Source: Candidatus Shapirobacteria bacterium (GTDB lineage: Bacteria; Patescibacteriota; Microgenomatia; UBA12405). From it: a stretch of DNA of 64,000 bases. Position 1 is the first letter of the stretch; the number at the start of each line of letters is the position of its first letter. The notes beneath the pieces were generated by a model. The model did not search any database and was not told the origin of the DNA. It was given only the letters and a program-made list of their open reading frames with translations. The stretch spans positions 81,838-145,837 of the forward strand of contig JBAZSP010000001.1 of NCBI GenBank assembly GCA_041663285.1. Reading direction: 5' to 3'. Made by a program: the position numbers and the translations under genes. Below are positions 10,500 to 63,810 of this stretch, piece by piece.

Positions 10500-10654
10500 A
10501 GAAAACTTCTTCGTCGCTTCGCTCCTTCGATCCCGTTGCACTCGTTCTCTCATATTGCTCGCGAGATGGGGGGTATAATCAATTCTATCTGGCGGCAACA
10601 TTAGATACTCGCAAACATTAGGCGAAATTTATTTTAAATACCTTTAAAATATTT

Positions 10655-22080: not shown

Positions 22081-23004
22081 GTGACAAAAAATAACGGGTT
22101 CTTATCCTTGCTTGAAGCTTTGCGCCCTAGTCAGTGGATTAAAAATTTAAGTATCTTTTCGGCTGCCTTGCTAAACGGGCAGTTATTCGACACCGATATT
22201 TTTGTCAAAAGTGCTTTCGGCTTCGTCGCCTTCTGCCTATTGTCCTCGTCTTCCTATCTTATAAACGATCTCCAGGATATCGACAAAGACCGTCTCCACC
22301 CGTCAAAGAAGAACCGCCCACTGGCCAGGGGAGATGTTTCCAAATTTTCCGCCATCGCGACCTCAGTAGCTCTTTTTATTTCTGGCTTGTCAATGGCCTC
22401 ATTGGTCAACTCCGCCTTTTTACAACTTTCTTTTGTTTTTATTATCCTGCAATACAGTTACTCATTCCTCTTCAAGAAGAAAGCAATTATAGACATCATC
22501 GGCATTGCCCTGTTTTTCATAATCCGTGCATATGCCGGCGAAATTGCATCCGGCTATCACCTTCCGGTCTGGATAATGCTTACCGTCATATTCTTGTCGT
22601 TATTTATTGCCTCCGGTAAACGTCGTACCGAACTTTATGTTACCGGCAGAAAGGCCAGGTCAGCCATGAAAGGCTATGGTAAGGCATTGCTTAATTTTTA
22701 CACCACTATGTTTGCCGTTTCTACCCTAATTACGTACGCCATGTTTACCTTTCTGGAAGAGCCGGTTAGGTTTCAGGGCATAATTCACCATTTTTTACTG
22801 GAAAATTTTCCTTCTGCTATCGACCGCAAGTGGTACATGATAACCCTGTTACCGGTCATATTTGGCATTATGCGTTACGGTCAAATCATCTTCGAAATGC
22901 AGGAAGGGGAGAAGCCCGAAAGAATAATTACCACCGACATCCCTTTAATATTTTCAATTGCTCTTTGGGGCTTAATGATAATTACAGTTATCTATGTCCT
23001 CTAG
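22081..23004 (+). CDS. UbiA-family prenyltransferase, decaprenyl-phosphate phosphoribosyltransferase (DPPR synthase)-like
   Basis: ~8 TM helices, the Asp-rich motif NDLQDIDKDRLHPSKKNRPLARG (NDxxDxxxD) and N-terminus QWIKNLSIF as in the Rv3806c-type enzymes. Confidence 0.65.
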   Translation: MTKNNGFLSLLEALRPSQWIKNLSIFSAALLNGQLFDTDIFVKSAFGFVAFCLLSSSSYLINDLQDIDKDRLHPSKKNRPLARGDVSKFSAIATSVALFISGLSMASLVNSAFLQLSFVFIILQYSYSFLFKKKAIIDIIGIALFFIIRAYAGEIASGYHLPVWIMLTVIFLSLFIASGKRRTELYVTGRKARSAMKGYGKALLNFYTTMFAVSTLITYAMFTFLEEPVRFQGIIHHFLLENFPSAIDRKWYMITLLPVIFGIMRYGQIIFEMQEGEKPERIITTDIPLIFSIALWGLMIITVIYVL

Positions 23005-24574: not shown

Positions 24575-24581
24575 TACCCTT

Positions 24582-26297
24582 ATGGCCAGACTACCCACCC
24601 GTTTCCACTATCTGCCCGTGTTAGTAGTTATTCTTTTACTGGGTTTCTTTTTCCGGTTTTACGGTCTTAATTGGGATCAAAGTCAGCATCTTCACCCAGA
24701 CGAAAGATTTTTAACCATGGTTGTTACCGCCATGAAATTACCCATCAACATTACGGAATATTTTGATCCGCAGCTTAGTTTACTCAATCCCTACAATCTT
24801 AATTTTAGCTTTTTTGTCTACGGCACTTTGCCCCTGGTTATAACCAAAATTATCGGCCAACTTCTAAATTACACCGAATACTGGAACGTATTTTTAGTCG
24901 GCCGGGTTTTGTCGGCTGTTCTTGATCTGGGTGTAGTTATTCTTATATACCGGATCTCCAAAACTATTTCGGGCCCAAAAGCAGCCCTGGGCGCCGCTTT
25001 TATCTATTCGGTTATGGTATTGCCCATTCAGCTGTCCCATTTTTTCGCCGTTGACACCTTTGTCAATTTTTTTGTTGTACTCACTCTTTTTCTAACTTTA
25101 AAATATCTTCCGAAACACCCCTTCCGCGGCTCACTTCTGGCTGGGGGGGCCTTCGCCCTTGCTCTAGCCTGCAAAATATCCGCCCTCTACTTTAGTCCGG
25201 TTATTGCGTTCTTGTTTGTATACAGCTTTCTCGTCTTCACTCCCAAGCTGTTGGCAAAAATCGTCAATCTGATAGTCTATGGCCTCTTATTTTTATTTAG
25301 TTGTTTCTTTATTTTCAGGCTAATTCAGCCACATTTGTTCCAAACTCAAAACATTTTTAGTTTTTCTCTTGAACCCCGCTTTATCAGCAATCTTAAAGAG
25401 CTAACCTCTTACTCCGATAAAAATAGTTGGTACCCCCCTGGCATCCAGTGGAAAACTACCCGCCCTCTTTTATTCCCCTTAACCAATCTGGCTTTGTGGG
25501 GACTTGGCGTTCCTCTTTTTCTTGTAACCTGTTTGGGTTTAATTCTGCAGTTCTGGGGTATCAAAAAGAATATAAAAAAACTATTTTGTTGCCCTTCCCT
25601 TTTTACTATAGCGGTCTTGTCTCTTTGGCTGGTTGCTTTCTTTTTATATCAAGGCAGCCAACACGTCAAAACCATGCGTTACTTTCTTATCCTTTACCCC
25701 ATACTGGCTATTTTGGCCGGAGAAGCTTTTGCCCGCCTTCTGGCTTTTTTTGTCAGAAAATCAACACTGCTGGCTGTCTTTTTCATCTTTGCCTTTCTTG
25801 CCTATCCTCTTTCTTTTATGTCCATTTATACTCACCAAATTACCCGGGTTGCTGCTTCCGAATGGATCTATCGTCATATTCCTTCCGGTTCAACCTTGAC
25901 TTATGAGCTCTGGGACGATCCTCTGCCTCTTTCCCTGCCCGGATACCCGGTTAATCAATATCAGCTTTTGGAGCTAAAAATGTTTGACAAAGATAGTCCG
26001 GAAAAGTGGCAGGATCTTTCTAAAAAATTATCCCAGGTCGATTATTTAGTTATGTCGTCCAACCGTTTGCACGGCACTATTCCGAAACATCCCGAATATT
26101 ATCCCCAGTCATCCGTCTTTTACCAGAGTTTGCTCGCCAATACCCACCCCGATTTTAAAAAAATTGCCGAGTTTACCTCCCGGCCTTGCTTTCCTCCAGT
26201 TGGTTCTCCTCTATTTTGCCTGGTCGACGACTTTGCCGAAGAAGCCTTCACTGTCTACGACCACCCTAAAGTACTGATCTATCAAAAAACATTATAG
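24582..26297 (+). CDS. GT-C fold membrane glycosyltransferase (GT39/PMT/ArnT-like), paralogue of 22994-24574
   Basis: 571 aa polytopic, loop-1 motif HLHPDERFLTMVV, C-terminal domain similar to the preceding gene (…FTVYDHPKVLIYQK vs …FSVFDHPKIRLYKK). Confidence 0.65.
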   Translation: MARLPTRFHYLPVLVVILLLGFFFRFYGLNWDQSQHLHPDERFLTMVVTAMKLPINITEYFDPQLSLLNPYNLNFSFFVYGTLPLVITKIIGQLLNYTEYWNVFLVGRVLSAVLDLGVVILIYRISKTISGPKAALGAAFIYSVMVLPIQLSHFFAVDTFVNFFVVLTLFLTLKYLPKHPFRGSLLAGGAFALALACKISALYFSPVIAFLFVYSFLVFTPKLLAKIVNLIVYGLLFLFSCFFIFRLIQPHLFQTQNIFSFSLEPRFISNLKELTSYSDKNSWYPPGIQWKTTRPLLFPLTNLALWGLGVPLFLVTCLGLILQFWGIKKNIKKLFCCPSLFTIAVLSLWLVAFFLYQGSQHVKTMRYFLILYPILAILAGEAFARLLAFFVRKSTLLAVFFIFAFLAYPLSFMSIYTHQITRVAASEWIYRHIPSGSTLTYELWDDPLPLSLPGYPVNQYQLLELKMFDKDSPEKWQDLSKKLSQVDYLVMSSNRLHGTIPKHPEYYPQSSVFYQSLLANTHPDFKKIAEFTSRPCFPPVGSPLFCLVDDFAEEAFTVYDHPKVLIYQKTL

Positions 26298-26300
26298 ACC

Positions 26301-27908
26301 ATGCCCAAGCTATTTCACCTAAGCGCCGCTTTTCTTTTTTTCTACTCTTCCCTTGGCCTTTTTTGGGCCCCTTTGTCGCCATTGCTGGCCAAAACACTTA
26401 TCGTCTCTTGGATGTTGATTTTTGTTTGGCTGCTGGCTTTTGGTATCTACCTTGAAATTCAGAATTTACGACAAAAAAAATATCCCATATATACCGCCAT
26501 TAGTCTCTTTATAACCTTTGCCATAATTTTATCCAATATTGCCAACGGCAAATATCTTTATGGCGAAATAGCCCAGGAAACTACTTGTTTATTTAATCAC
26601 CTCAGTGCTTCATCGGATCTTGGATTCAACCAAACTTGTCTTTTTGGTTATCCGGCCCGGCAGTTTATATTTTCCTCACTGCCATCCTTTTTTGGCCGGT
26701 CACTTTTTTTATTGAACGTTGGCCCATTCCTTTATTTTATAATCGGCCTTACCCTTTTTATCGCCGGTATTAGGTATTTTATTGATGATTCTCGAACCGG
26801 CGATCTCCTAACAGCATTGTTTATTTGGCTTTTACCCCATTCACCTCACTTTTTTCATCTTGTTTTTAGCTTTGAGCAGGCTCTCTTTCCCCTTTGTTTT
26901 ACTCTCGCCCTGTTAGGCTTGTTTTTTGCCTTCCAAAAAGCCAAAGACGTCTTTCCATTATTCGGCTTTGGCCAGGTTATCCTTCTTTTAACTTATTCCT
27001 ACACCCCCTCCTTGTCTGTCGTTCTTTTGTCTTTCGTGGCCTTATTTTATTTTTTGTTTCTCTATCGTCACCAGTTTAAGATAACCATCTCGCTATCACT
27101 TATAATCATCTTTTGCGCTATTAATCTCCTTAGCTCAGTGACCCTTCGTCAGGACCTTAACAGGCAGAATTCAAGCGCAAACCCTTCGGTATTATCGGCC
27201 AGCCTAACCGTCTTATCTCATGTTTTTTTTCAAAGCCAGGGAAAAAACTTTGTTGATCCCCAGATTCAAGCCTGGTTTATCCTGGCCACCGCCGCTCCGT
27301 TGCTTTTGGTTTATGGCTTCCGTCATTTTGTCATTTCTTTGTGGGTCGTTGCTACTATTTTACTTTCCGCTTTATCTCCTGGCTACGCCTCACCTCCCAT
27401 CGATTTTGCTCTACATCGGGCGATTATAATTATCCCTGTACTCTACGCCCAAAATCTAATAGCGCTAATTCATAGAAAAACTATCTGCCAGATTCTTCCG
27501 TTGCTTCAACTTTTGTTACTCCTTTTAGCTGTCAGCGGGGTGTCCAAATACTTGTCCTATACCCAAGGCCAGTCGATTTCTCCATATTATTCCGTCATTA
27601 CCTGGTTGGCCGAGAAAAATATTATTGTACCCAAAACTCCGGCTACCGTTTATTTTGCTTCGGGTATCAATTCCGGCATTACTTCGCTTCGTGACTTTAT
27701 GCCCTATTTTTATCCCAACGTTTCCACTCATAGTCTCGATCATCAATTTTGTCAGTTAAGTCAAACTATTCCTCCCGGCATCTACATATTCCCGTCAGAT
27801 TTTTCCTGTGGGTTACTCAACGACTCTCCCGCTTTTCGCCAGGAGCAGTATCTTGAACCTTCCACTCACCAAGTTTATTTAATAAAAAATATTAGCCAGG
27901 TTTTCTAA
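26301..27908 (+). CDS. polytopic membrane protein, probable additional GT-C-type glycosyltransferase
   Basis: 535 aa with more than 10 TM helices, translationally adjacent in the same gene string. No diagnostic motif recognised. Confidence 0.4.
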   Translation: MPKLFHLSAAFLFFYSSLGLFWAPLSPLLAKTLIVSWMLIFVWLLAFGIYLEIQNLRQKKYPIYTAISLFITFAIILSNIANGKYLYGEIAQETTCLFNHLSASSDLGFNQTCLFGYPARQFIFSSLPSFFGRSLFLLNVGPFLYFIIGLTLFIAGIRYFIDDSRTGDLLTALFIWLLPHSPHFFHLVFSFEQALFPLCFTLALLGLFFAFQKAKDVFPLFGFGQVILLLTYSYTPSLSVVLLSFVALFYFLFLYRHQFKITISLSLIIIFCAINLLSSVTLRQDLNRQNSSANPSVLSASLTVLSHVFFQSQGKNFVDPQIQAWFILATAAPLLLVYGFRHFVISLWVVATILLSALSPGYASPPIDFALHRAIIIIPVLYAQNLIALIHRKTICQILPLLQLLLLLLAVSGVSKYLSYTQGQSISPYYSVITWLAEKNIIVPKTPATVYFASGINSGITSLRDFMPYFYPNVSTHSLDHQFCQLSQTIPPGIYIFPSDFSCGLLNDSPAFRQEQYLEPSTHQVYLIKNISQVF

Positions 27909-30471: not shown

Positions 30472-32658
30472 ATGGTTGCCGATTTTAAGTATATCGTTTT
30501 TTGGTGGTTAACCATCTTCCTGATTGGTTCTCTGTCTTTACCGCTGATCTTTACTGTGTTTAGGGATTTTTACGACAAGGGTTATATTTTTAGCAAAATC
30601 GCCGGTATCGCCATCCTGACCTATATTATATTTGTTTTGGGTATTTTTAAATTTTTGCCCTTTTCCAGCAGCTCGATATTTTTTATTTTATTCTTTGTCC
30701 TGCTGGCAAATATTTTATATCTTTCCAAAAAAGATAATTTTGCCAAATTTAAAAAAGATCTCCTGCTTCACCACCGGCAAATAATATCCCAGGAGTTGGC
30801 CTTTTTTGGTGTTTTAACCCTCTGGTCTTTTATCCGTGGCCATTCGCCCGACATTGATAACCTCGAAAAGTTTATGGACTGGGGATTTGTAAATTCTGTT
30901 TTAAGATCTACCTTCATGCCCCCGGCCGACATGTGGTATTCCGGTGAACCGATCAATTACTACTATTTCGGCCACCTCATTTTTGGCGTATTAACCAAAA
31001 TTTCGGGCATCGATTCCGCTATCACCTACAACCTTTCCATCGCCACAGTTTGCGCCCTTACCTTTGTTAGCGGCTTTTCAATAACGTCCAATCTTGTTGT
31101 TCACTTTAATGTCTTCAAAGCTGTTATAAAAAAGAAACTTGACGTCCGGAATATCCGTTTAAAACAGGCGGTTTTGGCCGGTGTATTTTCGGCCTTTCTA
31201 CTGACCTTCGGTGGCAATTTCCACGCCGTCTACAAGATTATTAAGCTTGATATAAGTCAAAATAACGGCCGTTTTGTCCTTACCAAAGATGCTCTTAACC
31301 AGGCTGCCAATTCTTATTGGTATCCAGACGCCACCCGTTTTATCGGTTTTGATCCCGATATAAAAGATAAGACTATCCACGAATTTCCTCTCTATAGCTT
31401 TGTGGTGGCCGACCTTCACGGTCACATGAACGATATTCCGGTTATCTTGTTTTTCATTGCCTTTCTTTTTGCCTTTAGCCTGTCACCGGTAAAGGCTCCA
31501 TCTTGGAAATTAATTGTCCCATCAGGCCTGATATTATCAATTGCTTTCATGACCAACGCCTGGGACTTTTTTGTTTACGGCCTAACCTTTGCCGTTTGTC
31601 TCTTTTTTATCCATCTTCACCATACTGATTTTTATCAGGCAATAAGGTCAATATTGATAAACGGGTTTTTAACTGTTCTCTGTTGGTACCTTTTCACCTT
31701 ACCCTTTACTCTTAATTTCATCCCCATGGCCGACGGAGTCAGGCTGGTCGATTATCGAACTCCGTTTTACCAGCTTTTTGTTTTATATGGTGGTTTCTGG
31801 CTGATTTGCTTGCCTCTTTTAGGTTATTTTTTCTATCGCTTTTTAAAAGACAGGTCGTTTATCAAAAAAATGATCCCGTCCGACGTCATTGCGTTGGCCT
31901 TGATTTTAGTTGCTACTTTATTAGTGCTTCTTCCCGAGATTATTTATCTTAAAGATATATATATATACGAGCATCGTCGGGCCAACACCATGTTTAAGCT
32001 TGTTTATCAGGCGTTTATTCTCTACTCACTTGTAGCTGGGTATGCTGTTTACCGTTTGTCTGCCTCAATTCGGCCGCGGATGATTAAATTCCTATACAAA
32101 GTAATTGTGCTAATAGTTTTTACCAGCCATTTAATTTACCCGTTTTTCGCCATCAAGTCAGCCTATGGTAGCCTTTCTTCATACAAAGGTCTGTATGGTC
32201 TAGGTTTCTTAAAGACAGCTCACCCGGATAGTTTTGAAGCTGTCAAATGGATTAATGCCAACATTTCCGGCCAGCCAGTAATCCTTGAAGCCGCCGGGGA
32301 TAGTTATACCTACTATAATCATATTTCAGCCGCGACTGGCGTCCCCACTGTCCTGGGCTGGCTGGTTCACGAATGGCTTTGGCACGGAGGTCAAAAAGAC
32401 CCAAATTCCTCCAAGTACCTAAACAAGCTGGACTGTGGTGATCCCTGCAGTGTCCGCGGTCCTGATGTTCAAAGAATTTACGAATCCCAAGACGTTGTCG
32501 AAGTTCGTTCTTTGCTCCAAAAATACAATGTCGATTATGTCTTTGTCGGCGATAAGGAGCTCGAAAAATATCAAAGCTTAAATGTCGACGTAATTTCGGG
32601 GCTTAGCCAAATTGTTTTTGAATCCGGTAAAACCAAACTATACAAGATTACTAAATAA
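30472..32658 (+). CDS. large polytopic membrane protein of the DUF2298 / YYY-domain family (GT-C-like)
   Basis: 728 aa with the signature segment GEPINYYYFGHLIFGVLTKISG, as in the Chloroflexi/archaeal YYY-domain proteins. Confidence 0.6.
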   Translation: MVADFKYIVFWWLTIFLIGSLSLPLIFTVFRDFYDKGYIFSKIAGIAILTYIIFVLGIFKFLPFSSSSIFFILFFVLLANILYLSKKDNFAKFKKDLLLHHRQIISQELAFFGVLTLWSFIRGHSPDIDNLEKFMDWGFVNSVLRSTFMPPADMWYSGEPINYYYFGHLIFGVLTKISGIDSAITYNLSIATVCALTFVSGFSITSNLVVHFNVFKAVIKKKLDVRNIRLKQAVLAGVFSAFLLTFGGNFHAVYKIIKLDISQNNGRFVLTKDALNQAANSYWYPDATRFIGFDPDIKDKTIHEFPLYSFVVADLHGHMNDIPVILFFIAFLFAFSLSPVKAPSWKLIVPSGLILSIAFMTNAWDFFVYGLTFAVCLFFIHLHHTDFYQAIRSILINGFLTVLCWYLFTLPFTLNFIPMADGVRLVDYRTPFYQLFVLYGGFWLICLPLLGYFFYRFLKDRSFIKKMIPSDVIALALILVATLLVLLPEIIYLKDIYIYEHRRANTMFKLVYQAFILYSLVAGYAVYRLSASIRPRMIKFLYKVIVLIVFTSHLIYPFFAIKSAYGSLSSYKGLYGLGFLKTAHPDSFEAVKWINANISGQPVILEAAGDSYTYYNHISAATGVPTVLGWLVHEWLWHGGQKDPNSSKYLNKLDCGDPCSVRGPDVQRIYESQDVVEVRSLLQKYNVDYVFVGDKELEKYQSLNVDVISGLSQIVFESGKTKLYKITK

Positions 32659-34590: not shown

Positions 34591-35640
34591 ATGATCACCC
34601 GACTTGTTTATAGCCAGGAAAAAAAACAATTTAATCAATTAATCCGCCACCCGGTCCAAACCTGGGAGTGGGGTGATTTTCAAATAACTCAAGGCCACCA
34701 GGTTTACCGGCTTGGTGTTTTTGAAAAAAACAAAATGATCTCGGCTTATAGCCTTAGCTTTCACCGCCTTCCCCGGCTCAATTTTTCTGTCGGCACAATT
34801 CTAAGGGGCCCCATGCCAGATTTAGAAATGCTGACCAATATTCAAAAAATTGGCCGTGACGAAAACGCCCTTTTTATCAAATTGGAACCCGACGTTATTC
34901 ACCAGAGCTTCTCCGACCTTGGCATAGGGAGTGTCATCTCACCCAGCCCCGATCTTCCGAATTTGGTGGTTTCTCCCAAAGTTGCCTTTTACCCCCATAC
35001 CTACTTTGTTGATTTAACCAAAACCGAAAACGAGCTTATCGAAGCTCTTCATTCCAAGACTCGTTACAATATTAAAGTAGCTAATCGTCACGGGGTAAAG
35101 ATCCGGGAGATGACGACCGATCAGGGATTCGAGATTTATCTTCGGCTACTTTTTGAAACAACCAAGCGCCAGGGTTTTTATCTTCACACCCCCGAGTATC
35201 ACCAACAACTTTGGCAGACGCTCAAAGCCTCCGGTATGGTAAAAATTATGATAGCCACCTATCAGGATTTAGCCCTGGCCGCCTTTATGCTCTTTAAGCA
35301 GCAGGACCGTCTATATTACCCCTACGGCGCTTCTTCCGACGTTCATCGGGAGGTCATGGCGCCGACACTGTTAATGTGGGAATGTCTTATGCTTGGTAAA
35401 AAATTAGGCTGCAATACTTTCGACATGTGGGGTAGCTTAGGGCCAAACGCTCAAGCCACCGAGCCTGGCTTTGGCTTCCATCGCTTTAAACAGGGTTTTG
35501 GCGGCCAATTATCCCAATATGTTGGTACTTACGATCTGGTTATCGACCCTCAAAAATATCAGCTCTACAATCTCGTTGATCGTTGGCGTTGGCGTCTACT
35601 TCGGTTCAAGGCCAATCTTTTTAAAACTACCACCGACTAA
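34591..35640 (+). CDS. FemX/FemAB-family aminoacyl-tRNA-dependent peptidoglycan peptide-bridge transferase
   Basis: N-terminus WEWGDFQ...YSLSFHRL..FSVGTILRGPMPD and C-terminus YYPYGASSDVHREVMAPTLLMWECLMLGKKLGCNTFDMWG collinear with the FemX fold, 349 aa. Confidence 0.65.
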   Translation: MITRLVYSQEKKQFNQLIRHPVQTWEWGDFQITQGHQVYRLGVFEKNKMISAYSLSFHRLPRLNFSVGTILRGPMPDLEMLTNIQKIGRDENALFIKLEPDVIHQSFSDLGIGSVISPSPDLPNLVVSPKVAFYPHTYFVDLTKTENELIEALHSKTRYNIKVANRHGVKIREMTTDQGFEIYLRLLFETTKRQGFYLHTPEYHQQLWQTLKASGMVKIMIATYQDLALAAFMLFKQQDRLYYPYGASSDVHREVMAPTLLMWECLMLGKKLGCNTFDMWGSLGPNAQATEPGFGFHRFKQGFGGQLSQYVGTYDLVIDPQKYQLYNLVDRWRWRLLRFKANLFKTTTD

Positions 35641-37172
35641 AACCATGGCCTCTTAGTAGTCAGCATGTCGGTTGAGTCACCCAACTTAAAAAAGCGGTCA
35701 ACTATCGGAAATTTTGCCCTGGAAAGAATTATTTGTTTGTCCATCGGGCAGGTTTTGTTTTCGCAGTTGACCTCAAAGGCAGAATAAATAAACCGGCTGT
35801 TTAAAAATGCCCCGATCAAAACAAAGACTATCATTAGGCTCCGGGTTAGTGCTCTACCTGTTTTTAGTCTTTTCGCCAATGCCAACAGTGATGGCAGTAA
35901 AATAAACAAAAGACTCAGCCTGAAGCCTAAGGTTGACGTCGTCGGCCGGAAGTCATTGGCCAGGAAAAACCGACTGGTCATTAATAGCCCGAAAACCAGG
36001 GTTGCTGAAAAGAAATTGGCTTTTTTTAGCACGTACCTCAATCCCAAGGCTCCAAAAATGGCCAAAAAGGGAAAAGTGGGATATCGGTACCAGGGGAGCA
36101 GGTCACCCTCGGTTCCGGAAAATATTGCCACCATTAAAAAGTAAAAGAAGAATAACGCTACTAATCGGTATTTGTCAGTAAAGTTTTTTCTTAAACAGAA
36201 AAATAAAGCCATTAAAAAAGCAAAAATGTACCAACCGTCTTTTAGCACAAAAATATCAAAGGCCGGGGTGGTAAATATGGTAGCCATACCCGTCCAGCCG
36301 GCAAATCTTTGTCCCTGAATTGCCACAATATGTCTAAATAATTCCCAATCATAATAATAGCCGTAATAGGCGAACGCTAAAATCCCAAGCACCGTCCAAA
36401 AAAATATAGCCCCAATGTCTTGGTACCGTTTTTTACCAAAACTTACATAAATTAAAAGTGGAGCCAAAAAAAATCCGGTCGGCTTCATTAATCCCAGAAT
36501 AGCTGCCAATATGCCAAAAAAGTTTGCCAGCCAAAAGTTAGGCTTTTCTTCATAAATTTTGGCCAGTCCCAGGGTTCCGATAGCCGCCAAGGCAATAACA
36601 TTTTCCGGTACCGACAATCTGGAACCAAAAACAAAAATCGGCGTAACTCCGTAAAACATCATCGCCAGCATCCCGATTTTATAACCAAAAAACATTTTCC
36701 CCACCCAAAATATCAGTACCATGGTCAGAAGCGACATTACCACCGTCGGCATCCTTGAGTAAGCCGGGTTAATTACTTTGGTTCTATCGCTTTTAAAAAG
36801 ATGGGCCACTCCTCCGGCCATCAGGCTAAACAAAGGTGGCTCGTCCAGCCATGGCCGATATAGCTTTGCCGGCAGATACATATTACTTTTGTCCCCGACG
36901 ATACCATCATAAACGAGGGCGCTTTTGGGGTATTCCAGTGTCGACCACGACGTCGGCACTCCGGTTTCAATTAAGTGTATCCCGGACCAGCCATAAAGTA
37001 GTTCTTCCGCATGAACCGGATAGGGGACCCGGTCATAATTATGCAATTTCAAAATTGTCAGGTAACAAAACACTATTCCAAAAAGTATCCGTTTAAAAAC
37101 CAATCTGCCGTCTTCGCGTCCTTTCGCTTTATGTTTCACCAAAATTATTATATCAGCAAGATATTCAACCAT
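35637..37172 (-). CDS. GT-C fold membrane glycosyltransferase (GT39/ArnT-like), fourth paralogue
   Basis: 511 aa polytopic with loop-1 acidic motif (PVHAEELLYGWSG) and a C-terminal soluble domain. Confidence 0.55.
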   Translation of the reverse strand: MVEYLADIIILVKHKAKGREDGRLVFKRILFGIVFCYLTILKLHNYDRVPYPVHAEELLYGWSGIHLIETGVPTSWSTLEYPKSALVYDGIVGDKSNMYLPAKLYRPWLDEPPLFSLMAGGVAHLFKSDRTKVINPAYSRMPTVVMSLLTMVLIFWVGKMFFGYKIGMLAMMFYGVTPIFVFGSRLSVPENVIALAAIGTLGLAKIYEEKPNFWLANFFGILAAILGLMKPTGFFLAPLLIYVSFGKKRYQDIGAIFFWTVLGILAFAYYGYYYDWELFRHIVAIQGQRFAGWTGMATIFTTPAFDIFVLKDGWYIFAFLMALFFCLRKNFTDKYRLVALFFFYFLMVAIFSGTEGDLLPWYRYPTFPFLAIFGALGLRYVLKKANFFSATLVFGLLMTSRFFLANDFRPTTSTLGFRLSLLFILLPSLLALAKRLKTGRALTRSLMIVFVLIGAFLNSRFIYSAFEVNCENKTCPMDKQIILSRAKFPIVDRFFKLGDSTDMLTTKRPWF

Positions 37173-48003: not shown

Positions 48004-48037
48004 CACTGTTTAGCACTCCCATTATTATATTGCTAAC
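48000..48037 (+). promoter_or_regulatory. sigma70-type promoter (TTGACA-17-TATTAT) overlapping a CIRCE-like inverted repeat directly upstream of hrcA
   Basis: ttgaca at 48000-48005, then a 17-nt spacer and tattat. TTAGCACTC at 48010-48018, then 9 nt, then tattgctaa at 48028-48036. The left half of the CIRCE consensus TTAGCACTC-N9-GAGTGCTAA matches exactly; the right half keeps TGCTAA. Confidence 0.6.
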
Positions 48038-54138: not shown

Positions 54139-55586
54139 ATGGCTAAATCGGATAAAAATATTACCTATCGCCCGCCCATAGTTACTATAATGGGGCATAT
54201 TGATCACGGCAAAACGACTCTTCTTGATAAAATCCGTAGTACTTCAGTCTGGGCCAAAGAAGCCGGCGGCATAACCCAGCATATCAGCGCCTACCAGGCA
54301 AAAGTGCAATTAGCTCAAGGCCAAACATCCGTCATCACCTTTATCGATACCCCTGGCCATGCCGCCTTTTGCCAAATGCGGACTCGCGGAGTTCAGGTAA
54401 CCGATATTGTAATTCTGGTTATTTCGGCCGTAGATGGAATAATGGCCCAAACCAAAGAATGTATCGATATTATCAAGAAAGCCAACCTGCCGTTTATCGT
54501 TGCCATTAACAAGATCGATCTTCCCGGTGCCAATTTGGATAAGGTAAAAGGCCAGCTGGTAGAGCTTGGGTTTACCCCCGAAGACTATGGCGGTCAATTA
54601 GCCTGTATTCCGGTTTCCGCCAAGACTGGCGAAGGCATCCCCAAACTTTTAGAGATGGTAATTTTAAATGCCGAACTTTTAGAGTTACAGCTTGAAGAAA
54701 ATGCTCCGTTTGAGGGGATAGTAATTGAGTCCCGGGTTGACAAAAACCGTGGTCCGGTAGCTGTCATGGTGGTTAAAAAGGGAATTATAAATATTGGCGA
54801 TACCATATTTTATGGTGAAGCGCCGGTAAAGATTAAAGCCATGATTGATTATCAAGGCCAGAACATTCCGTCCGCTGGCCCCAGTGTCCCCGTCGAAATT
54901 CTTGGATTTAGCCAGGCACCTCTGGCCGGTGGTTTGCTTACAGCTTCCCCGGTTGTACCGAACCCGGCTTTGTCCCTTTCTGTCACCTCTAAAGCCCATA
55001 CTCCCGGCCAGCCCCAACTCCCCATTATTTTAAAAGCTGATGTTGGGGTACCCTTGAAGCTATCCTCGGTTGCCTGCCCGACGATGTTCTAATTATCGCT
55101 TCCGGGATTGGGCCGGTTACTGATAACGACATTTTCTTAGCCCAAACATCCCAAGCCGAAATCTTTGCCTTCAATATATCGGTTCCCAAAAACGTCAAAA
55201 CTCTGGCCCAAAACAGCCAAGTGAAGATTTTTGATTCCAAGATTATTTATGAAATTATCGACAATATTCAGGGCCAAGTTTTAAAGCTTCTGGAGCCGAC
55301 TATCAACGAGACTGTTTTGGGTGAGGCGGGTATTAAAGCCGAATTTAAGATCGAAAAAAACCGGATTGCCGGGGTTCAGGTGACCAAAGGTGAGCTTGCC
55401 AAGGGTGACCAAGTTCATCTGCAGCGGGCTGGAAAAATAATCAAGGATACCCGGATTGAAGGTATCCACCAAGCCAAATCCGTTGTCGACAAGGTTAAGA
55501 TGGGGATGGACGGTGGTATGACTTTTAAGCCTTATGTTGATTTTAAAATTAATGATGTTATAATAGCCTATAAGAGTGACGATTAG
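54139..55586 (+). CDS. infB: translation initiation factor IF-2, short form lacking the N-terminal extension; reading frame broken at a GGGG run near 55045 (frameshift or sequencing error)
   Basis: G-domain IVTIMGHIDHGKTTLLDKIR, DTPGHAAF, NKIDL in ORF 54139-55092. The collinear continuation ...GTLEAILGCLPDDVLIIASGIGPVTDNDIFLAQTS... and the C-terminal beta-barrel (ORF 55221-55586) lie in the frame shifted by one nucleotide, starting at 55047. Confidence 0.8.
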
Positions 55587-56935: not shown

Positions 56936-57205
56936 ATGGCATTAACTAAAGACGAAAAGCAGGAAATAATTACTAAGTTTGCTCAAGCCAAAGGCGATAC
57001 CGGTTCTCCCGAGATTCAGGTTGCGATTCTCTCCAAGGAAGTCGAAAAGCTCCAATCCCATCTTACCGACAACAAGCATGATTCTCCGGCCAAAAGGGGT
57101 ATTTTAAGTAAAATTGCCAAAAGACGCCGGCTTCTTCGCTATTTATCTGATCATAATCCGGACCGTTACTCCAAAATCATAAAGGATCTTGGTCTGAAAA
57201 AATAA
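56936..57205 (+). CDS. rpsO: 30S ribosomal protein S15
   Basis: MALTKDEKQEIITKFA...GSPEIQVAILS...LTDNKHDSPAKRGIL..IAKRRRLLRYL, 89 aa, preceded by a TATAAT-containing leader. Confidence 0.9.
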   Translation: MALTKDEKQEIITKFAQAKGDTGSPEIQVAILSKEVEKLQSHLTDNKHDSPAKRGILSKIAKRRRLLRYLSDHNPDRYSKIIKDLGLKK

Positions 57206-57251: not shown

Positions 57252-59456
57252 ATGAATAAAATTTCTCAAGATATCCAAGTTGGAGATACAGTTATTAGTC
57301 TCGAAACCGGAGTATTAGCTCCTCAAACCAACGCCTCGGTAGTTGCCCGTTACGGCAATACTGTGGTTCTGGCTACTGTGGTTATGGGCAAAGTTGATGA
57401 GTCAAAAGACTATTTTCCACTTTCAGTCGAATTTGTCGATAAATTATATGCTGGTGGCCTGATCAAGGGGGGTAAATGGATTAAGCGTGAAGGTGGCCCA
57501 ACCGACACCGCCATTCTTTACGGCCGGATTATTGACCGTTCAGTCAGACCTCTTTTTCCTGCTGGTTTTCAAAATGAAGTCCAGCTAGTCGCTACTGTAC
57601 TAAGTAATGACAAAGAGCACGATGCTGTTATTCCAGCCTTTTTAGCTTCGTCTGCTGCCCTAGCTATTTCCGACATTCCTTTTAGCTCACCTGTTTCGGC
57701 TATTCGGGTAGGTCTCAAAAACGGCCAGCCGATAATCAGCCCGAGCCTTACCGAACTTAAGGATTCACAAATGGATTTGCTTATCTGCGTCGGTCCGGAG
57801 GGGATTAACATGATCGAAGCCGGAGCCTCAATTATCGACAATGCCACCGTTTTAAACGGCATTGAATCAGCCTATGAGGTTGGTCAAAAGGTCAACCAGC
57901 AGCTGATGGAATTCGTTCAAAAATGTTCCAAGAAAAAAGTTGAATTCGAAAAATTCGCCCCCAGCCAGGAACTTCTGGCCGAGGTCGAAAAGCACCTAAC
58001 CACCGACATCAAAGACTTTTTAGAAACCGGTGCCGATGGTAAGCATGTCGCTGACGAGGCGGTTATTAAAGATAAGATTACTGGCATCTATCAGCCAAAA
58101 ATCGACTCCAAAGAAATTAATCCCAATATTTTGATGATGGCTGTCGATACGGTGCTTAAACAAGCTTTTAGGCAGCACACCCTGACTACCAAAATCCGTT
58201 ACGACAAAAGGGCCCTCGATGAAATCCGTCCCCTGACGATTGATGTTGGCGTTTTGCCTTGTGTTCATGGTTCAGCCATGTTCCAGCGTGGTTTGACCCA
58301 AGCCATCACCGTCACCACCCTAGGATCTTTGGCCGAAAAACAATTTTTGCAGGATTCAACTGGCGAAACCACCAAAAGATACATCCACTATTATTCAGCC
58401 ATGCCTTTTTCCACTTTTCAAATTGGACGGTTCGGCCGGCCGGGCAGAAGGGAAATCGGTCATGGATCCTTAGCCGAAAAGGCATTATTGCCGGTTATTC
58501 CGTCAGAGGAAGAATTTCCGTATACTATTGCTCTCACCTCCGAAGTTCTTTCTCAAAACGGCTCCTCATCGATGGCTTCTACTTGTGGCTCCACCTTATC
58601 TCTTCTTGACGCCGGTGTACCTATAAAAGATCTGGTTGCCGGAATTTCTATCGGCATGGTTTCCGGTGGCGCGGATGACTATCTTTTACTTACCGACATC
58701 GCCGGTATCGAAGATCATTTTGGTGATATGGATTTCAAAATTACCGGCACCAAAACCGGTATTACCGCTATCCAGCTGGATATTAAACGGGCAGGCTTAA
58801 CTCTAGAAATGATTAAAGATACCTTTGTTGCCAGCACCAAAGCCAGGCTCTTTATTCTAGACAAAATTTCCCAAGTACTTTCTTCCCCGCGGCCCACCCT
58901 TTCACCCTTTGCTCCAAAAATCCGGTTAGTCAAATTACCGGAAGACAAAATCGGCGAAGTCATTGGCTCTGGTGGTAAAACCATCAAGGCTTTAATGGCC
59001 AAATTCCAAGTCCAAATCGATATTGATGATTTTGGTAACGCCTCGATTTCTTCACCCGATATTGATCAGGTCAATGCCGCTGCTTACGAAATCGAATCAA
59101 TGATTAAGGATGTCCAGATCGGGGAGGAATATGACGGCATCGTTACACGGGTAGAAAACTACGGTGCCTTTATTGAGTTTTTACCCGGCCGCGAAGCTCT
59201 GCTTCACGTCTCCGAAATGGCTCAAGGTTTTATCTCCGACCCTTCCGCCATCATCAAAATCGGAGATCGGCTTAAGGTCAAAATTAGCGGCTTTAACGAT
59301 AACCATCAAATAAAACTGGCTGCTCCGGAATTCAAAAACACTCACCAGGGCGAGGAACGAAGCCCCGGTCCTCCAAGTCGGACAGGTTTCGGTGGCGGTA
59401 ATCGGAACTTTGGCAGATTTAACTCTGATTTGCGTTCAAGTCGGCCAAGACGCTAA
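57252..59456 (+). CDS. pnp: polyribonucleotide nucleotidyltransferase (PNPase)
   Basis: Two RNase PH domains, KH (GSGGKTIKAL) and S1 (GEEYDGIVTRVENYGAFIEF) domains, and an RG-rich tail; 734 aa. Confidence 0.9.
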   Translation: MNKISQDIQVGDTVISLETGVLAPQTNASVVARYGNTVVLATVVMGKVDESKDYFPLSVEFVDKLYAGGLIKGGKWIKREGGPTDTAILYGRIIDRSVRPLFPAGFQNEVQLVATVLSNDKEHDAVIPAFLASSAALAISDIPFSSPVSAIRVGLKNGQPIISPSLTELKDSQMDLLICVGPEGINMIEAGASIIDNATVLNGIESAYEVGQKVNQQLMEFVQKCSKKKVEFEKFAPSQELLAEVEKHLTTDIKDFLETGADGKHVADEAVIKDKITGIYQPKIDSKEINPNILMMAVDTVLKQAFRQHTLTTKIRYDKRALDEIRPLTIDVGVLPCVHGSAMFQRGLTQAITVTTLGSLAEKQFLQDSTGETTKRYIHYYSAMPFSTFQIGRFGRPGRREIGHGSLAEKALLPVIPSEEEFPYTIALTSEVLSQNGSSSMASTCGSTLSLLDAGVPIKDLVAGISIGMVSGGADDYLLLTDIAGIEDHFGDMDFKITGTKTGITAIQLDIKRAGLTLEMIKDTFVASTKARLFILDKISQVLSSPRPTLSPFAPKIRLVKLPEDKIGEVIGSGGKTIKALMAKFQVQIDIDDFGNASISSPDIDQVNAAAYEIESMIKDVQIGEEYDGIVTRVENYGAFIEFLPGREALLHVSEMAQGFISDPSAIIKIGDRLKVKISGFNDNHQIKLAAPEFKNTHQGEERSPGPPSRTGFGGGNRNFGRFNSDLRSSRPRR

Positions 59457-59485: not shown

Positions 59486-60544
59486 ATGGACGATAATTTA
59501 ACGCCTGCCGGTGCTATTGACCGATTGGTAGCCAAAACCAAAACTGTCAAACTTCCCGAAGGTATGTCCGCTAAGCTGGACGATATCTTTGCCCAGCTGG
59601 CCATAAATGCCAACTCCGGCGATACTTTCTGGCAGAATTTTCAAACTGCTTCAAAATATATCGACGTGGTCTGTGGCATTCCTTGGTATACCCAAAGTCA
59701 GGATATCCTTGATTTAGATTATGCCAGAGAAAAGCTCAACGAAGGTCATTACGGCCTGGATACCGTCAAAGAAAGGATATTGGAATACGTTTCCATTCTG
59801 GCTCTTCAAAAAAACCGTCAGCCGGATATCCGGTTTGGAGCTCCGGTTTTGTTGTTTGTCGGCCTGGTCGGAACTGGCAAAACTACCATGGCCAAGTCTA
59901 TCGCTTCGGTTTTGGGCCGCCAGTTGATACGGATTCCTTTTGGCGGTTTGGGTGATCCCTTTTATCTTCGCGGCAAATCCCGAACCTACGCTGATGCCGA
60001 AATCGGCCACATAGTTAAAGGGCTTATAGGCTGTAAAACTAATAATCCGGTAATCCTTTTGGACGAAATTGACCGGGTAGCCGATGACGCTCTCAACACT
60101 ATCATGGGCGTCCTGGTCGAATTACTTGACCCGGAACAAAATTCAAATTTTGTCGATCATTATATAGATTATCCGGTTAATTTGTCCCAGGCCCTTTTTG
60201 TCGCTACCTGCAACAATACTACCAGAATTGCCACCGCTGTTATGGATCGGTTAGAGGTCCTTCAAATGCCGTCCTATACCGATGAAGAAAAAATTGCCAT
60301 TGGCCGTGATTATCTTTTGCCCCGGGCTATGACTGAGTCGGGTATTAGCCCGTCCGAGCTTCAGATTTCCTCCGATATATGGCTCCAGATTGTCCGTCCC
60401 CTGGGCTTCGATGCCGGGGTTAGAACTCTAAAACGCAACATCGAAGGCCTTTGCCGCAAAACCGCCCGGCTGATTTTTGAAGGCCAGCTTAAGTCACTGT
60501 TGATTGATGAGACTAACGTTAAGAAATTCATGCCCCAGTGGTAA
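59486..60544 (+). CDS. Lon-type AAA+ ATPase module without Lon N-domain and without S16 protease domain
   Basis: HYGLDTVKERILEYVSILALQ, Walker A GLVGTGKTT, Walker B ILLDEIDR, LVELLDPEQNSNFVDHYIDYPVNLSQALFVATCN, MDRLEVLQMPSYTDEEKIAIGRDYLLP are collinear with the Lon AAA core. The ORF stops where the protease domain would begin. Confidence 0.6.
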   Translation: MDDNLTPAGAIDRLVAKTKTVKLPEGMSAKLDDIFAQLAINANSGDTFWQNFQTASKYIDVVCGIPWYTQSQDILDLDYAREKLNEGHYGLDTVKERILEYVSILALQKNRQPDIRFGAPVLLFVGLVGTGKTTMAKSIASVLGRQLIRIPFGGLGDPFYLRGKSRTYADAEIGHIVKGLIGCKTNNPVILLDEIDRVADDALNTIMGVLVELLDPEQNSNFVDHYIDYPVNLSQALFVATCNNTTRIATAVMDRLEVLQMPSYTDEEKIAIGRDYLLPRAMTESGISPSELQISSDIWLQIVRPLGFDAGVRTLKRNIEGLCRKTARLIFEGQLKSLLIDETNVKKFMPQW

Positions 60545-60607: not shown

Positions 60608-61450
60608 ATGAATCCCCACGACTCTCGTCTTCGATCTAAATTATTAACCTTTTTTCTAGCCGTAATTTTTCTTTTTACCTTGGCTTTTGTTGCTTATCAG
60701 CAGGAAGTAATTTCCTCTTTAGATTCCAAAGTCACTAGTTTGAACTATCAAAAAAATATACCTTCTCCCTTACCCACCCAAGTTCCAACCCCGACCCCTA
60801 TTGGTAGAATCCCGGAAATTATTTTACCCACACCTCCAGCTAACTGGTTGTATTACACTAACCAAGGTAACGGCTACTCCTTTAAATATTCCCCTATTTT
60901 TGAAAATCTCGAAGCAAAAATCGATGAGCCAAATCAGATAATTCCCAATAGTGCCGGTAAGGACCTGACGCTTATTCACTATCAGGAAAGTGACCGTGCT
61001 TATGTTCAAAGATGCTCCTCTCAGTCTGAGGACTGTGGGAGAAAACACGGACTTACTATCAATTTTTTCGAAATGTCAGAAGCTATTTCTGATAGTCACC
61101 ATCCCAATTTAGTTTTTAGTAATGATGAGAATATTTTTTATCTGGAACAGAATCCCAATATTCTCGGGGGTATTATTACTAGCAAAACAAATCCTCAAAG
61201 ATCAATCTATTTTAATTTTCAGTACAACGATAAATGGTTATATAGCCCCGCACACAACAACTATTTACTCCAAATCCTCTCCACCTTTAGATTTACGGAT
61301 CAGGACTTTTCCGAGCCTACTTTCAGTTGTCCCAAAACTAAATACCACAACTGTATGCCCATAGTCGCTGATCATTTAAAAAAATTCTGCACCAAAGAAT
61401 ATCTCGACTGGGTAAAAATCAACTGCCCCGGTGTAGAGATTTTGCACTAA
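60608..61450 (+). CDS. hypothetical membrane-anchored/secreted protein with C-terminal Cys pairs
   Basis: N-terminal TM and a PT-rich short linker; 280 aa; no motif. Confidence 0.35.
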   Translation: MNPHDSRLRSKLLTFFLAVIFLFTLAFVAYQQEVISSLDSKVTSLNYQKNIPSPLPTQVPTPTPIGRIPEIILPTPPANWLYYTNQGNGYSFKYSPIFENLEAKIDEPNQIIPNSAGKDLTLIHYQESDRAYVQRCSSQSEDCGRKHGLTINFFEMSEAISDSHHPNLVFSNDENIFYLEQNPNILGGIITSKTNPQRSIYFNFQYNDKWLYSPAHNNYLLQILSTFRFTDQDFSEPTFSCPKTKYHNCMPIVADHLKKFCTKEYLDWVKINCPGVEILH

Positions 61451-61455
61451 CCTTA

Positions 61456-62028
61456 ATGTCTACCAATCTCCAAAAGTTAAAATATATCGCTAATCTTGTC
61501 GAGCAGTGCCAAAAGTGTCCGCTTTACCAGACCGCTACCCATGGGGTTCCCGGTGATGGTAATCCCGAAGCCCGGATTTTTTTTATCGGTGAAGCTCCGG
61601 GTTATTTTGAAGATCAGCAGGGCTTACCGTTTGTAGGCAACTCCGGTAAATTACTCGACAAGCTTTTAGCTTCAATTAGCCTTAACCGCCAGGATGTTTT
61701 TATCGGTAACATTCTTAAGCACCGTCCTCCGGATAATCGCGACCCCTTGCCGGACGAAATCAAAGTTTGCACCCCCTACCTTAAGGCCCAACTCAAAGTC
61801 ATTCAGCCCAAGGTAGTCATAACTCTTGGCCGTTTTGCTCTTAATTATTTTTTACCGACTGATTCAATCAGTCAGGTGCACGGCCAGGTAAAAAAGATTC
61901 TCTGGCAGGATCTTCATTTTATCCTTATCCCGGTGTATCACCCTTCGGCTGGTCTCCGAAATGGCTCAATGCTCCGGGCCTTAGAAACCGACTTTATAAC
62001 CATTAAAAATTATTTAAACACTCAATAA
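61456..62028 (+). CDS. uracil-DNA glycosylase, family 4 (Fe-S type)
   Basis: CQKCPLYQ...PGDGNPEARIFFIGEAPGYFEDQQGLPFVGNSGKLL and C-terminal HPS; 190 aa. Confidence 0.85.
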   Translation: MSTNLQKLKYIANLVEQCQKCPLYQTATHGVPGDGNPEARIFFIGEAPGYFEDQQGLPFVGNSGKLLDKLLASISLNRQDVFIGNILKHRPPDNRDPLPDEIKVCTPYLKAQLKVIQPKVVITLGRFALNYFLPTDSISQVHGQVKKILWQDLHFILIPVYHPSAGLRNGSMLRALETDFITIKNYLNTQ

Positions 62029-62031
62029 ATT

Positions 62032-63810
62032 ATGTTTACCAAAAAAAATTCATTAGCTCGGCAACAGCCGCGCAATCCCATTCCTTTAAATTTTTCCCAA
62101 CCCAATAATCCGGTACGGCAGTTTAACCAGCCGTTTGATTCTGTCCGGGTTGCCTCTTTGGGCAGCTTCGGCGATGTTACCCAAAATATGTTCGTCTATG
62201 AATATATCCCCAACGGCGACCAATCAAAAAGCCAAATAATTATTGTCGACTGTGGCGTTGGCTTCCCCGAAGAAGATGCCTTTGGGGTCGATCTTCAAAT
62301 TCCTGACACTCAATATCTGAAAGACAAGAAAGATCGGATTCTCGGAATCTTTATCACTCACGGTCACGAAGATCATATCGGCGCCATTCGTTTTGTCCTT
62401 CCCCAGCTGGGTAGCGGCATTCCAATTTTCGCTCCCAAATTAGCTGCTGCCTTTATTCAAGCCCGACTAGCCGAGACTAACATCCGTGGCCAAATGACCA
62501 CCTACGACGGCCGTAGTCCGATAGCTCGGGGAGCTTTTGACGTCCAGCCGATTCGGGTTACTCACTCTATTCCAGATACTTTTCACTTAGCTATTTCCAC
62601 TCCCATCGGCATCTTTTACCACGGGTCTGATTTTAAATTTGATTTGTTCCCCTTGGATGGCAAGCAAGCCGATTTTCGTCAAATTGCCCGTGTCGGCGAT
62701 AAGAAGGTAGTCTGTCTTTTGTCTGATTGTCTTGGTTCGGATCACGAAGGCTTTTCTCCCTCCGAAAGCTCTATTGCCGAAAATTTTAAAAAAGAAATTA
62801 CCACTGCCAAGGGCAGGGTGTTTGTTACTTCAATTTCTTCCAACATAGTCCGTTGGGGTCAGGCTATTGAATACGCCAAAAGTTGTGGTCGAAAAATAGT
62901 CATAGTTGGGCTTTCGGTCGACCGGGCGATTGGGATAGCCAAGGATTTGGGCTATCTTGACCTCAAAGACGCCGACATCGTTTCCCCGGAGAGGATAAAA
63001 AACTTTGCTGATAATAAGCTGATCTTTTTAGTGGCCGGCTTTGCCGGTCAGCCGGAATCGGCCTTAAGTAAAATGATCATGGGCAAGCACAAAATCAAAA
63101 TAAAACCTAACGACCGGGTGATATTTTCTTCACCCGACTATATTCCCGGCACCACCTCCAACATCTACAACATGATCGATACTCTGTCCAAAATGGGCGC
63201 CGAAGTTACTTATGGCGACAAGGAAGAATTGCATGTTTCGGGTCACGGCTACCAAAAAGAACATGCCCTTCTTATCAATCTGGTTAATCCCAGATTCCTA
63301 TTGCCCATTGGTGGCAATTATCGCCACATCAGAAGTTATCAAAACTTGGCCAAAACTCTTGGTTTCACCCCGGATCAGTTGATTAGTCCTGATTATGACT
63401 CGGCGGTTACTTTCCATGGTAACGGGACTTATGACACCAACACCCACATCCCGCTCCGAAAAGTACTCATAGATGGCCTGGGTGTCGGCGACGTTGGGGT
63501 AACCGTCCTCCGTGACCGCAAGCTGTTGGCCGAAGACGGCATGTTTACCCTGGTACTTTTGGTTAACGGGGTCACTGGCCAGCTCGACAAAGATCCGGTG
63601 ATCTTAAGCCGCGGTTTTGTATTCATGAAAGAAAACACTGACCTAATAAATTATATTAAAGACGAAGTAATTGCTAAATTTAAAGAAGTTAGTAGCCAAC
63701 CTCTTAACTTCGACTTTGTCCGTCAGGAAATTCAGGCCCACACCGAACAGATCATCTTTGACAAAACCGGCCGCCAGCCCATGGTTCTTCCCTTGGTAAT
63801 AGAGGTCTAA
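62032..63810 (+). CDS. rnj: ribonuclease J (metallo-beta-lactamase/beta-CASP)
   Basis: HxHxDH motif ITHGHEDHIGAI, beta-CASP motifs, C-terminal domain; 592 aa. Confidence 0.85.
   Translation: MFTKKNSLARQQPRNPIPLNFSQPNNPVRQFNQPFDSVRVASLGSFGDVTQNMFVYEYIPNGDQSKSQIIIVDCGVGFPEEDAFGVDLQIPDTQYLKDKKDRILGIFITHGHEDHIGAIRFVLPQLGSGIPIFAPKLAAAFIQARLAETNIRGQMTTYDGRSPIARGAFDVQPIRVTHSIPDTFHLAISTPIGIFYHGSDFKFDLFPLDGKQADFRQIARVGDKKVVCLLSDCLGSDHEGFSPSESSIAENFKKEITTAKGRVFVTSISSNIVRWGQAIEYAKSCGRKIVIVGLSVDRAIGIAKDLGYLDLKDADIVSPERIKNFADNKLIFLVAGFAGQPESALSKMIMGKHKIKIKPNDRVIFSSPDYIPGTTSNIYNMIDTLSKMGAEVTYGDKEELHVSGHGYQKEHALLINLVNPRFLLPIGGNYRHIRSYQNLAKTLGFTPDQLISPDYDSAVTFHGNGTYDTNTHIPLRKVLIDGLGVGDVGVTVLRDRKLLAEDGMFTLVLLVNGVTGQLDKDPVILSRGFVFMKENTDLINYIKDEVIAKFKEVSSQPLNFDFVRQEIQAHTEQIIFDKTGRQPMVLPLVIEV

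Follow-up and report, generated by a model that had tools for sequence, protein, structure and literature searches.

What is a Lon motor for when it is made without the rest of Lon? The question is raised by a gene at positions 59486–60544 (forward strand, ATG start) of the window, by which we mean the whole 64,000-nucleotide (nt) stretch of DNA analysed here, from a Candidatus Shapirobacteria bacterium (assembly GCA_041663285.1, contig JBAZSP010000001.1, positions 81,838 to 145,837). An initial annotation, made from the sequence alone, had described the 352-amino-acid (aa) product as a stand-alone Lon-type AAA+ ATPase lacking both the substrate-recognition N-domain and the S16 protease domain, and had offered two readings of it: a truncated Lon remnant, or a Lon-derived unfoldase acting with another partner. 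We find that the protein is LonA-derived and consists of a three-helix (3H) bundle, an AAA+ alpha/beta domain and a Lon lid only, and that it represents a conserved, apparently undescribed family found across the Candidate Phyla Radiation (CPR), or Patescibacteria. We refer to the gene and its product as Lon-AAA.

The open reading frame (ORF) and its motifs were as first described, with Walker A GLVGTGKTT at residues 126–134, Walker B ILLDEIDR at 190–197, HYGL at 88–91 and the C-terminal end ...NVKKFMPQW*. A Pfam scan matched AAA (residues 122–259, 5e-16) and Lon_lid (residues 284–334, 2.2e-10), with no match to LON_substr_bdg (PF02190) or Lon_C (PF05362). The NCBIfam model TIGR00763 'lon' (endopeptidase La equivalog) was matched with E=1.1e-90 over positions 255–567 of 795 only, at a score of 305.3 bits, which is below its curated whole-protein cutoff of 608.05, and PRK10787 was matched over positions 292–579 of 784. 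Because both models were matched over their middle only, the predicted product lacks approximately 250–290 N-terminal and approximately 200 C-terminal residues of canonical LonA, in agreement with the initial annotation. That what remains is of LonA type is clear: all strong sequence matches in the PDB were LonA proteins (top match Bacillus subtilis 3m6a, 1.6e-68, query residues 55–349), the protein is 40% identical over 293 aa to a full-length LonA (positions 294–580 of 786), and the best non-Lon NCBIfam family was ClpA at 5.7e-07. A non-Lon AAA family was rejected, as NCBIfam, Pfam and PADLOC gave other families at the P-loop level only.

The AlphaFold2 monomer model (mean predicted local distance difference test score (pLDDT) 87, predicted template modelling score 0.81) comprises three N-terminal helices, an alpha/beta ATPase domain and a lid, and in Foldseek comparisons with LonA chains it aligned over 333–357 columns with query-normalised template modelling (TM) scores of 0.76–0.86. 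Because the superposition covers this length, we equate the N-terminal helices (7–19, 27–43 and 45–64; together residues 7–64, window 59504–59677, forward strand) with the 3H bundle, which is part of the LonA AAA+ module as defined previously (PMC8519571). The AAA+ alpha/beta domain, delimited by Pfam and motif alignment, occupies residues 121–259 (59846–60262, forward strand) and contains pore-loop 1 KSRTYADAE (164–172), a remodelled pore-loop 2 VADDALNTIMG (198–208), sensor-1 N243/N244 and the arginine finger R255. It is followed by the Lon-type alpha-helical lid domain (PF22667; residues 284–334, 60335–60487, forward strand), with sensor-2 R313 lying within the invariant motif RPLGFDAGVRTL, and by the C-terminal tail K-F-M-P-Q-W (residues 346–352, 60521–60541, forward strand; pLDDT 62 for the last block). 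The chain stops two residues past the conserved proline of the LonA AAA-to-protease linker, and thus at the AAA/protease boundary where the initial annotation had placed its end.

We searched for the missing domains by tblastn in the window and in 37 loci, with seven N-terminal regions, up to ten real Lon_C domains and an additional Lon_C sequence as queries, and also translated all frames near the gene. No coding potential for Lon_C or the Lon N-domain was detected in any frame of the 64-kb window, nor in the flanks (up to 10 kb on each side) of 26 related CPR loci, and the same queries readily detected, as a positive control, the full-length Lon in locus L032. The frameshifted Lon_C downstream or nearby that would have marked the gene as a broken lon was absent by both frame translation and tblastn, and a broken or split lon was rejected, the control Lon in L032 being the only one matched. 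The further 42 window ORFs that were scanned are ordinary housekeeping genes whose sole peptidase is a methionine aminopeptidase, and no peptidase was seen adjoining the gene in about 27 genomic contexts.

Database searches revealed that the short architecture is shared by a large family. The best 120 relatives are 348–370 aa long (mostly 353 aa) and 68–78% identical to the window protein, none of them contains Lon_C (0/120), and those named come from Candidatus Shapirobacteria, Woesebacteria or Patescibacteria. A profile built from more divergent members recovered 117 further proteins of 342–456 aa with AAA and Lon_lid and, again, without Lon_C, named from Dojkabacteria, Nomurabacteria and unclassified Patescibacteria; several of these lie on contigs of 0.56–0.85 Mb, which may be near-complete small genomes. 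Setting aside Lons with tandem modules, the approximately 237 listed relatives, with Curtissbacteria also among their sources, span 342–456 aa and lack Lon_C throughout. A neighbour-joining tree built from 291 columns of the AAA+ module in 199 sequences (distance-based, with capped distances in the bootstrap) placed the protease-less proteins in one clade, whose bootstrap support was 99% in a 20-leaf core, 84% with 29 leaves and 69% once all 30 were included. Members of the clade differ in length in their short tails, in low-complexity leaders at the N-terminus and in a variable insert ahead of Walker A. No Pfam domain was matched in the N-terminal extensions, and P0162 has a C-terminal extension of low complexity, so that no clue to a fused-domain partner emerged. 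Each member ends 1–7 residues past the F-[LM]-P conserved in the LonA AAA-to-protease linker; the spacing from Walker A to sensor-2 is constant at 183–185 aa in the protease-less families.

The simplest reading of this pattern would be that both flanking domains were lost once, long ago, and that the gene has since been inherited vertically. Lon-AAA proteins are 50–58% identical where pnp and rnj products are 37–49% identical, and since this is so, purifying selection on the gene appears to be at least as strong as on pnp and rnj; its conservation is on a par with that of nusA, infB, pnp and rnj. With more than 230 distinct relatives, a supported clade and conservation at the level of housekeeping genes, the proposal of a truncated Lon remnant is refuted. 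The initial annotation was right on the architecture and missed that it belongs to a lineage-wide family at a conserved chromosomal position, not to one genome as a peculiarity. Current Lon classes (LonA, LonB, LonC and LonBA) are all described as single chains that combine ATPase and protease (PMC9569914), and our full-text literature search (CPR, Patescibacteria or Saccharibacteria together with Lon; protease-less Lon) returned no description of such a family, nor of Lon in CPR bacteria or Patescibacteria. The databases label its members 'AAA family ATPase' (NCBI), as in the 100% identical entry P0001 from a Candidatus Shapirobacteria bacterium, or 'ATP-dependent Lon protease' (JGI), which is misleading.

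Two observations on the distribution of the gene stand apart from the clade itself. GTDB species-representative metagenome-assembled genomes (MAGs) titled 'uncultured Gammaproteobacteria', 'Pseudomonadales' or 'Candidatus Methanoperedens' (L005, L010, L011, L012, L013 and L015) carry the CPR-type gene at 66–71% identity, and the surrounding CPR gene order is also present in the longer contigs L012 and L013 and partly in L010 and L011, which suggests mislabelled or contaminated bins. Outside the CPR clade, a protease-less Lon-like protein of 572 aa (L023, 9239–10957) in the high-GC MAG YP2.bin62 joins an N-terminal region of approximately 280 aa to an AAA module with 33% identity, and P0222 (734 aa; LON_substr_bdg, AAA and lid) ends at the lid and may be a fragment.

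Within the clade, the catalytic machinery and the substrate-contacting loops have fared differently. Walker A, Walker B, the sensor-1 asparagine, the arginine finger and the sensor-2 arginine are all present in 119/119 Shapirobacteria-type proteins and in 107/116 of the wider CPR clade, and are also conserved in the full-length LonA consensus. The pore-loop-1 aromatic residue, present in all 62 LonA sequences (62/62; HRRTY[VIL]G), is found in 74/119 Shapirobacteria-type proteins, which otherwise mostly have His, and in 77/116 of the wider clade, so that approximately 35% of clade members lack it. Pore-loop 2 has changed as well: its GDP signature, found in 51/57 LonA, occurs in 0/120 Shapirobacteria-type and 0/116 wider-clade proteins, and its aromatic residue, found in 41/57 LonA, in 0/120 and 3/116, respectively. 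LonA holds its substrate through Y397/I398 of pore-loop I and W431 of pore-loop II (PMC8519571). Shapirobacteria-type proteins carry instead a near-invariant VADDALNTIMG in which Ala202 aligns with W431 of Meiothermus taiwanensis LonA, and the window protein retains the pore-loop-1 tyrosine (Y168) followed by Ala in place of Ile/Val. From these differences we infer that the polypeptide-gripping loops are under relaxed or redirected constraint. The tails are specific to subfamilies: ...F-x-P-Q-W with an invariant terminal Trp is found in the Microgenomates-type subfamily, and wider-clade tails mostly read ...IGV[YF]S, ...GTLS or ...GPLS.

Compared with LonA (MEROPS S16, subfamily A; B. subtilis 3m6a, M. 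taiwanensis 4ypl/7fd4 and human LONP1), Lon-AAA is thus alike in its collinear 3H bundle, AAA+ alpha/beta domain and lid and in the kind of Walker A/B, sensor-1, arginine finger and sensor-2 residues, whereas it has neither the N-terminal globular domain and long helix nor the S16 Ser-Lys peptidase domain, and the pore loops differ as described. In LonC and related Lon-like proteases (M. taiwanensis LonC; PMC3391209, PMC13069640), one of the two activities has likewise been lost and a chaperone-type role has been proposed, but they form a mirror image, keeping the protease beside a degenerate, ATPase-dead AAA-like domain where the Lon-AAA family keeps an apparently active ATPase and no protease. 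LonB and LonBA were not matched, since the top sequence and fold matches are all LonA and there is no Lon_C; the constant Walker A-to-sensor-2 spacing, compared within the protease-less families only, leaves little room for the large membrane-anchoring insertion of LonB. The ComM/YifB family is represented by a Mg_chelatase match to the P-loop only (E=0.094), below cutoff. AAA+ unfoldases that work without their usual peptidase include ClpX without ClpP (for example, yeast Mcx1), proteolytically inactive plastid FtsH-like (FtsHi) motors and Lon/Pim1 in its protease-independent chaperone activity. A Lon-AAA remodeller may be functionally analogous to ClpX without ClpP or to the chaperone activity of Lon, although ClpX and FtsHi come from other AAA+ clades and have retained the canonical aromatic pore loops, whereas those of Lon-AAA have diverged.

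The highest-scoring database matches to the window protein (P0121, P0123 and P0129) show another non-canonical rearrangement of the LonA AAA+ module. Five proteins of 997–1675 aa (P0121, P0122, P0123, P0129 and P0280) carry two or three AAA+/Lon_lid modules in tandem, followed by one Lon_C, and one also has ankyrin-repeat Pfam domains; some are named from Candidatus Dependentiae or Babeliales. Unlike the Lon-AAA family, these tandem-AAA Lons have kept Lon_C and have more than one copy of the AAA+ module, and they belong to another phylum. Such a multi-tier Lon architecture appears to be unusual.

The chromosomal position of the gene is conserved as well. In the window, it follows rpsO (56936–57205) and pnp (57252–59456), both on the forward strand, with a 29-nt spacer after pnp, and it precedes a gene for a family-4-type uracil-DNA glycosylase (UDG; Pfam UDG; 61456–62028, forward strand) and the RNase J gene rnj (62032–63810, forward strand), both of which are conserved downstream across CPR lineages by synteny. 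The Lon-AAA gene lies directly 3′ of rpsO-pnp in 21 of about 25 informative contexts, followed by the UDG and/or RNase J genes and then often by ftsK. The upstream block runs through infB and nusA to dnaJ and dnaK, and in the window as far as hrcA-grpE-dnaK. This order is shared by Microgenomates, Dojkabacteria and Nomurabacteria. The exceptions are locus L033, with four genes between pnp and Lon-AAA and no rnj; L036, which is rearranged and has lost pnp and rnj while Lon-AAA still abuts UDG; and L022, where the context is unrelated. UDG stands directly 3′ of Lon-AAA in distant CPR lineages (L034 and L035, and L036 at 10001–11556, where stop and start codons touch) and is missing from this position in many Shapirobacteria and Woesebacteria. 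No terminator-like site was found between pnp and Lon-AAA, promoter and terminator site counts being at chance level overall. The gene is probably co-transcribed with rpsO-pnp, within a housekeeping block that includes hrcA-grpE-dnaK-dnaJ, nusA and infB.

Between Lon-AAA and UDG, the window contains a 280-aa ORF (60608–61450) that starts 63 nt downstream of Lon-AAA. It has no Pfam or PADLOC match and none of the related loci was found to carry it, so it resembles an insertion specific to this lineage within the conserved block. The initial annotation had called its product secreted or an envelope protein, a label that derives from the hydrophobic N-terminus alone: the N-terminal hydrophobic anchor is there, with no Pfam domain to define the rest. 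A Lon-like ATPase of a defence system, such as BrxL of bacteriophage exclusion (BREX), was rejected for Lon-AAA, as PADLOC gave a generic AAA-level match only (DolB, 36 bits) and the context is a syntenic housekeeping block.

How, then, might such a motor work? The best-supported reading, to which we would give about an even chance of being right, is that Lon-AAA is a ring-forming, ATP-hydrolysing, protease-independent remodeller or chaperone. According to this proposal, a LonA-derived CPR clade apparently lost its N-terminal substrate-binding domain and S16 peptidase once, early in its history. The protein would still assemble into rings, since the trans-acting arginine finger is retained, and would hydrolyse ATP, since the catalytic machinery, including this inter-subunit finger, is strongly constrained. 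Its work would be remodelling or chaperoning instead of feeding a degradation chamber, given that the polypeptide-gripping loops of LonA have been rebuilt and that the pore-loop-1 aromatic is dispensable across the clade. The loss of the peptidase and the absence of an adjoining one in the contexts surveyed, together with the change in gripping-loop constraint, favour this reading over the others. Several points weigh against it: the window protein retains Y168 and may itself still thread substrates, the subfamily-specific tails (...PQW; ...IGV[YF]S / ...GTLS) could be docking elements for a partner, a peptidase partner may be encoded beyond the window and the loci searched, and the tree on which the single clade depends is distance-based, with 69% support at its deepest node. 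Of the Lon-derived unfoldase with a partner, as initially proposed, the Lon derivation and the intact ATPase motifs stand; however, neither the window nor the contexts surveyed yielded a partner, and classical threading is put in doubt by the remodelled pore loops.

Alternatively, Lon-AAA could be the ATPase half of a two-component protease, its ring docking in trans, perhaps through the C-terminal tail, onto a peptidase encoded separately, whether a hexamer of stand-alone Lon_C or a self-compartmentalised peptidase of unrelated type. HslU and the proteasomal ATPases use C-terminal tails to dock to their peptidases, and in Lon-AAA the ATPase motifs are intact, the chain always ends 1–7 residues past F-[LM]-P and the tails are conserved within subfamilies (PQW; IGV[YF]S; GTLS). 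However, these tails differ among subfamilies, and the genes of split enzymes usually remain adjacent, whereas neither Lon_C nor another compartmental peptidase adjoins Lon-AAA in about 27 contexts or occurs within the 64-kb window. The approximately 35% of members without the pore-loop-1 aromatic, and the lack of the LonA pore-loop-2 signature in all, also fit processive threading poorly, and we regard this arrangement as unlikely. Rather unlikely, too, is a remodeller linked to nucleic acids, either an accessory ATPase of RNA decay with PNPase and RNase J or a DNA-repair factor with the adjacent UDG. LonA proteins bind DNA and RNA, the order pnp, Lon-AAA, (UDG), rnj with short spacers recurs in Microgenomates, Dojkabacteria and Nomurabacteria with no terminator-like site from pnp to the gene, and the rearranged L036 keeps Lon-AAA and UDG with stop and start codons touching; but the entire block (dnaK-dnaJ-nusA-infB-rpsO-pnp...ftsK) is syntenic, so the neighbours may mirror inheritance and not function, and each adjacency is broken somewhere, by the four intervening genes and missing rnj of L033, by the unrelated context of L022 and by the absence of UDG from many Shapirobacteria and Woesebacteria. 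Moreover, the basic patch reported for DNA binding by E. coli Lon would align here with TQSQDILD, which is not basic.

That Lon-AAA works with a canonical full-length Lon from another locus, stacked on it as a second AAA+ tier or sharing mixed rings with it, seems very improbable. The fused Lons with two or three tandem AAA+/lid modules (P0121, P0122, P0123 and P0129) give a Rosetta-stone-type hint of tier stacking, but the named ones come from Dependentiae/Babeliales and not from CPR bacteria, and no full-length Lon was present in any CPR locus examined; the two full-length Lons closest to the module are not demonstrably from CPR bacteria, as P0177 lies in a non-CPR-looking context and P0174 is an orphan whose named relatives are Deltaproteobacteria and similar groups. 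The chance that Lon-AAA is a decaying lon pseudogene or an artefact of assembly or gene calling is close to negligible: at least one indel in the assembly, in infB, does break a reading frame, but more than 230 independent relatives share the length and both ends of the protein, NCBI, JGI and Logan assemblies all contain the identical protein, there is no Lon_C relic and conservation is high. Beyond the protease-independent remodeller that we favour, a bolder proposal, speculative and in our judgement doubtful, is that the CPR bacteria as a group converted Lon into a peptidase-free motor with rebuilt pore loops that serves as an obligate subunit of another machine, be it an accessory of PNPase/RNase J RNA decay or the unfoldase of a hitherto unrecognised peptidase that docks in trans via the conserved C-terminal tails. 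If this is true, AAA+ proteins would have a new type of partnership, and CPR bacteria a lineage-defining trait in their proteostasis or RNA metabolism.

Other features of the window merit a brief record. The infB gene (54139–55586) is split into two ORFs, 54139–55092 and 55221–55586, with the break near 55040–55047; from approximately 55043 another frame reads GTLEAILGCLPDDV... into the C-terminal ORF, implying a 1-nt indel at a G-run, and relatives encode an intact IF-2 of 470–533 aa. The split is probably an assembly error, the alternative being a real frameshift. An inverted repeat resembling CIRCE (controlling inverted repeat of chaperone expression), TTAGCACTC-N9-TATTGCTAA, lies at 48010–48036 with 2 mismatches (0 expected by chance), directly 5′ of hrcA (48038), which is followed by grpE, dnaK, a 150-aa ORF and dnaJ. 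The arrangement suggests that this CPR genome has a heat-shock operon of the classical HrcA/CIRCE type. Heat-shock regulation of Lon-AAA was rejected, because this sole CIRCE-like site in the window is upstream of hrcA and not near the gene. A gene cluster at 22081–27908 and 35637–37172 encodes large membrane proteins that carry PMT_2 (dolichyl-phosphate-mannose-type glycosyltransferase) domains, along with a UbiA prenyltransferase, near DUF2298 (30472–32658), glycosyltransferase family 4 (GT4) and methyltransferase genes, in what looks like a cell-envelope glycosylation region with several paralogues.

Domain loss is common in evolution; what makes this clade a useful natural experiment on the Lon motor alone is how broad, old and conserved it is, and that its pore loops have been rebuilt. 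A large, ancient and strongly conserved motor-only clade across CPR bacteria implies that selection can act on a function of the Lon AAA+ module by itself, and provides a natural system in which to part the chaperone or remodelling activity of Lon from its proteolysis. The clade is also systematically mis-annotated: the JGI label 'ATP-dependent Lon protease' would lead metabolic and proteostasis reconstructions to assign Lon proteolysis to CPR genomes in error. Should these genomes indeed have no S16 peptidase at all, these bacteria, which have reduced genomes and are mostly episymbiotic, would organise their protein quality control unlike model bacteria.

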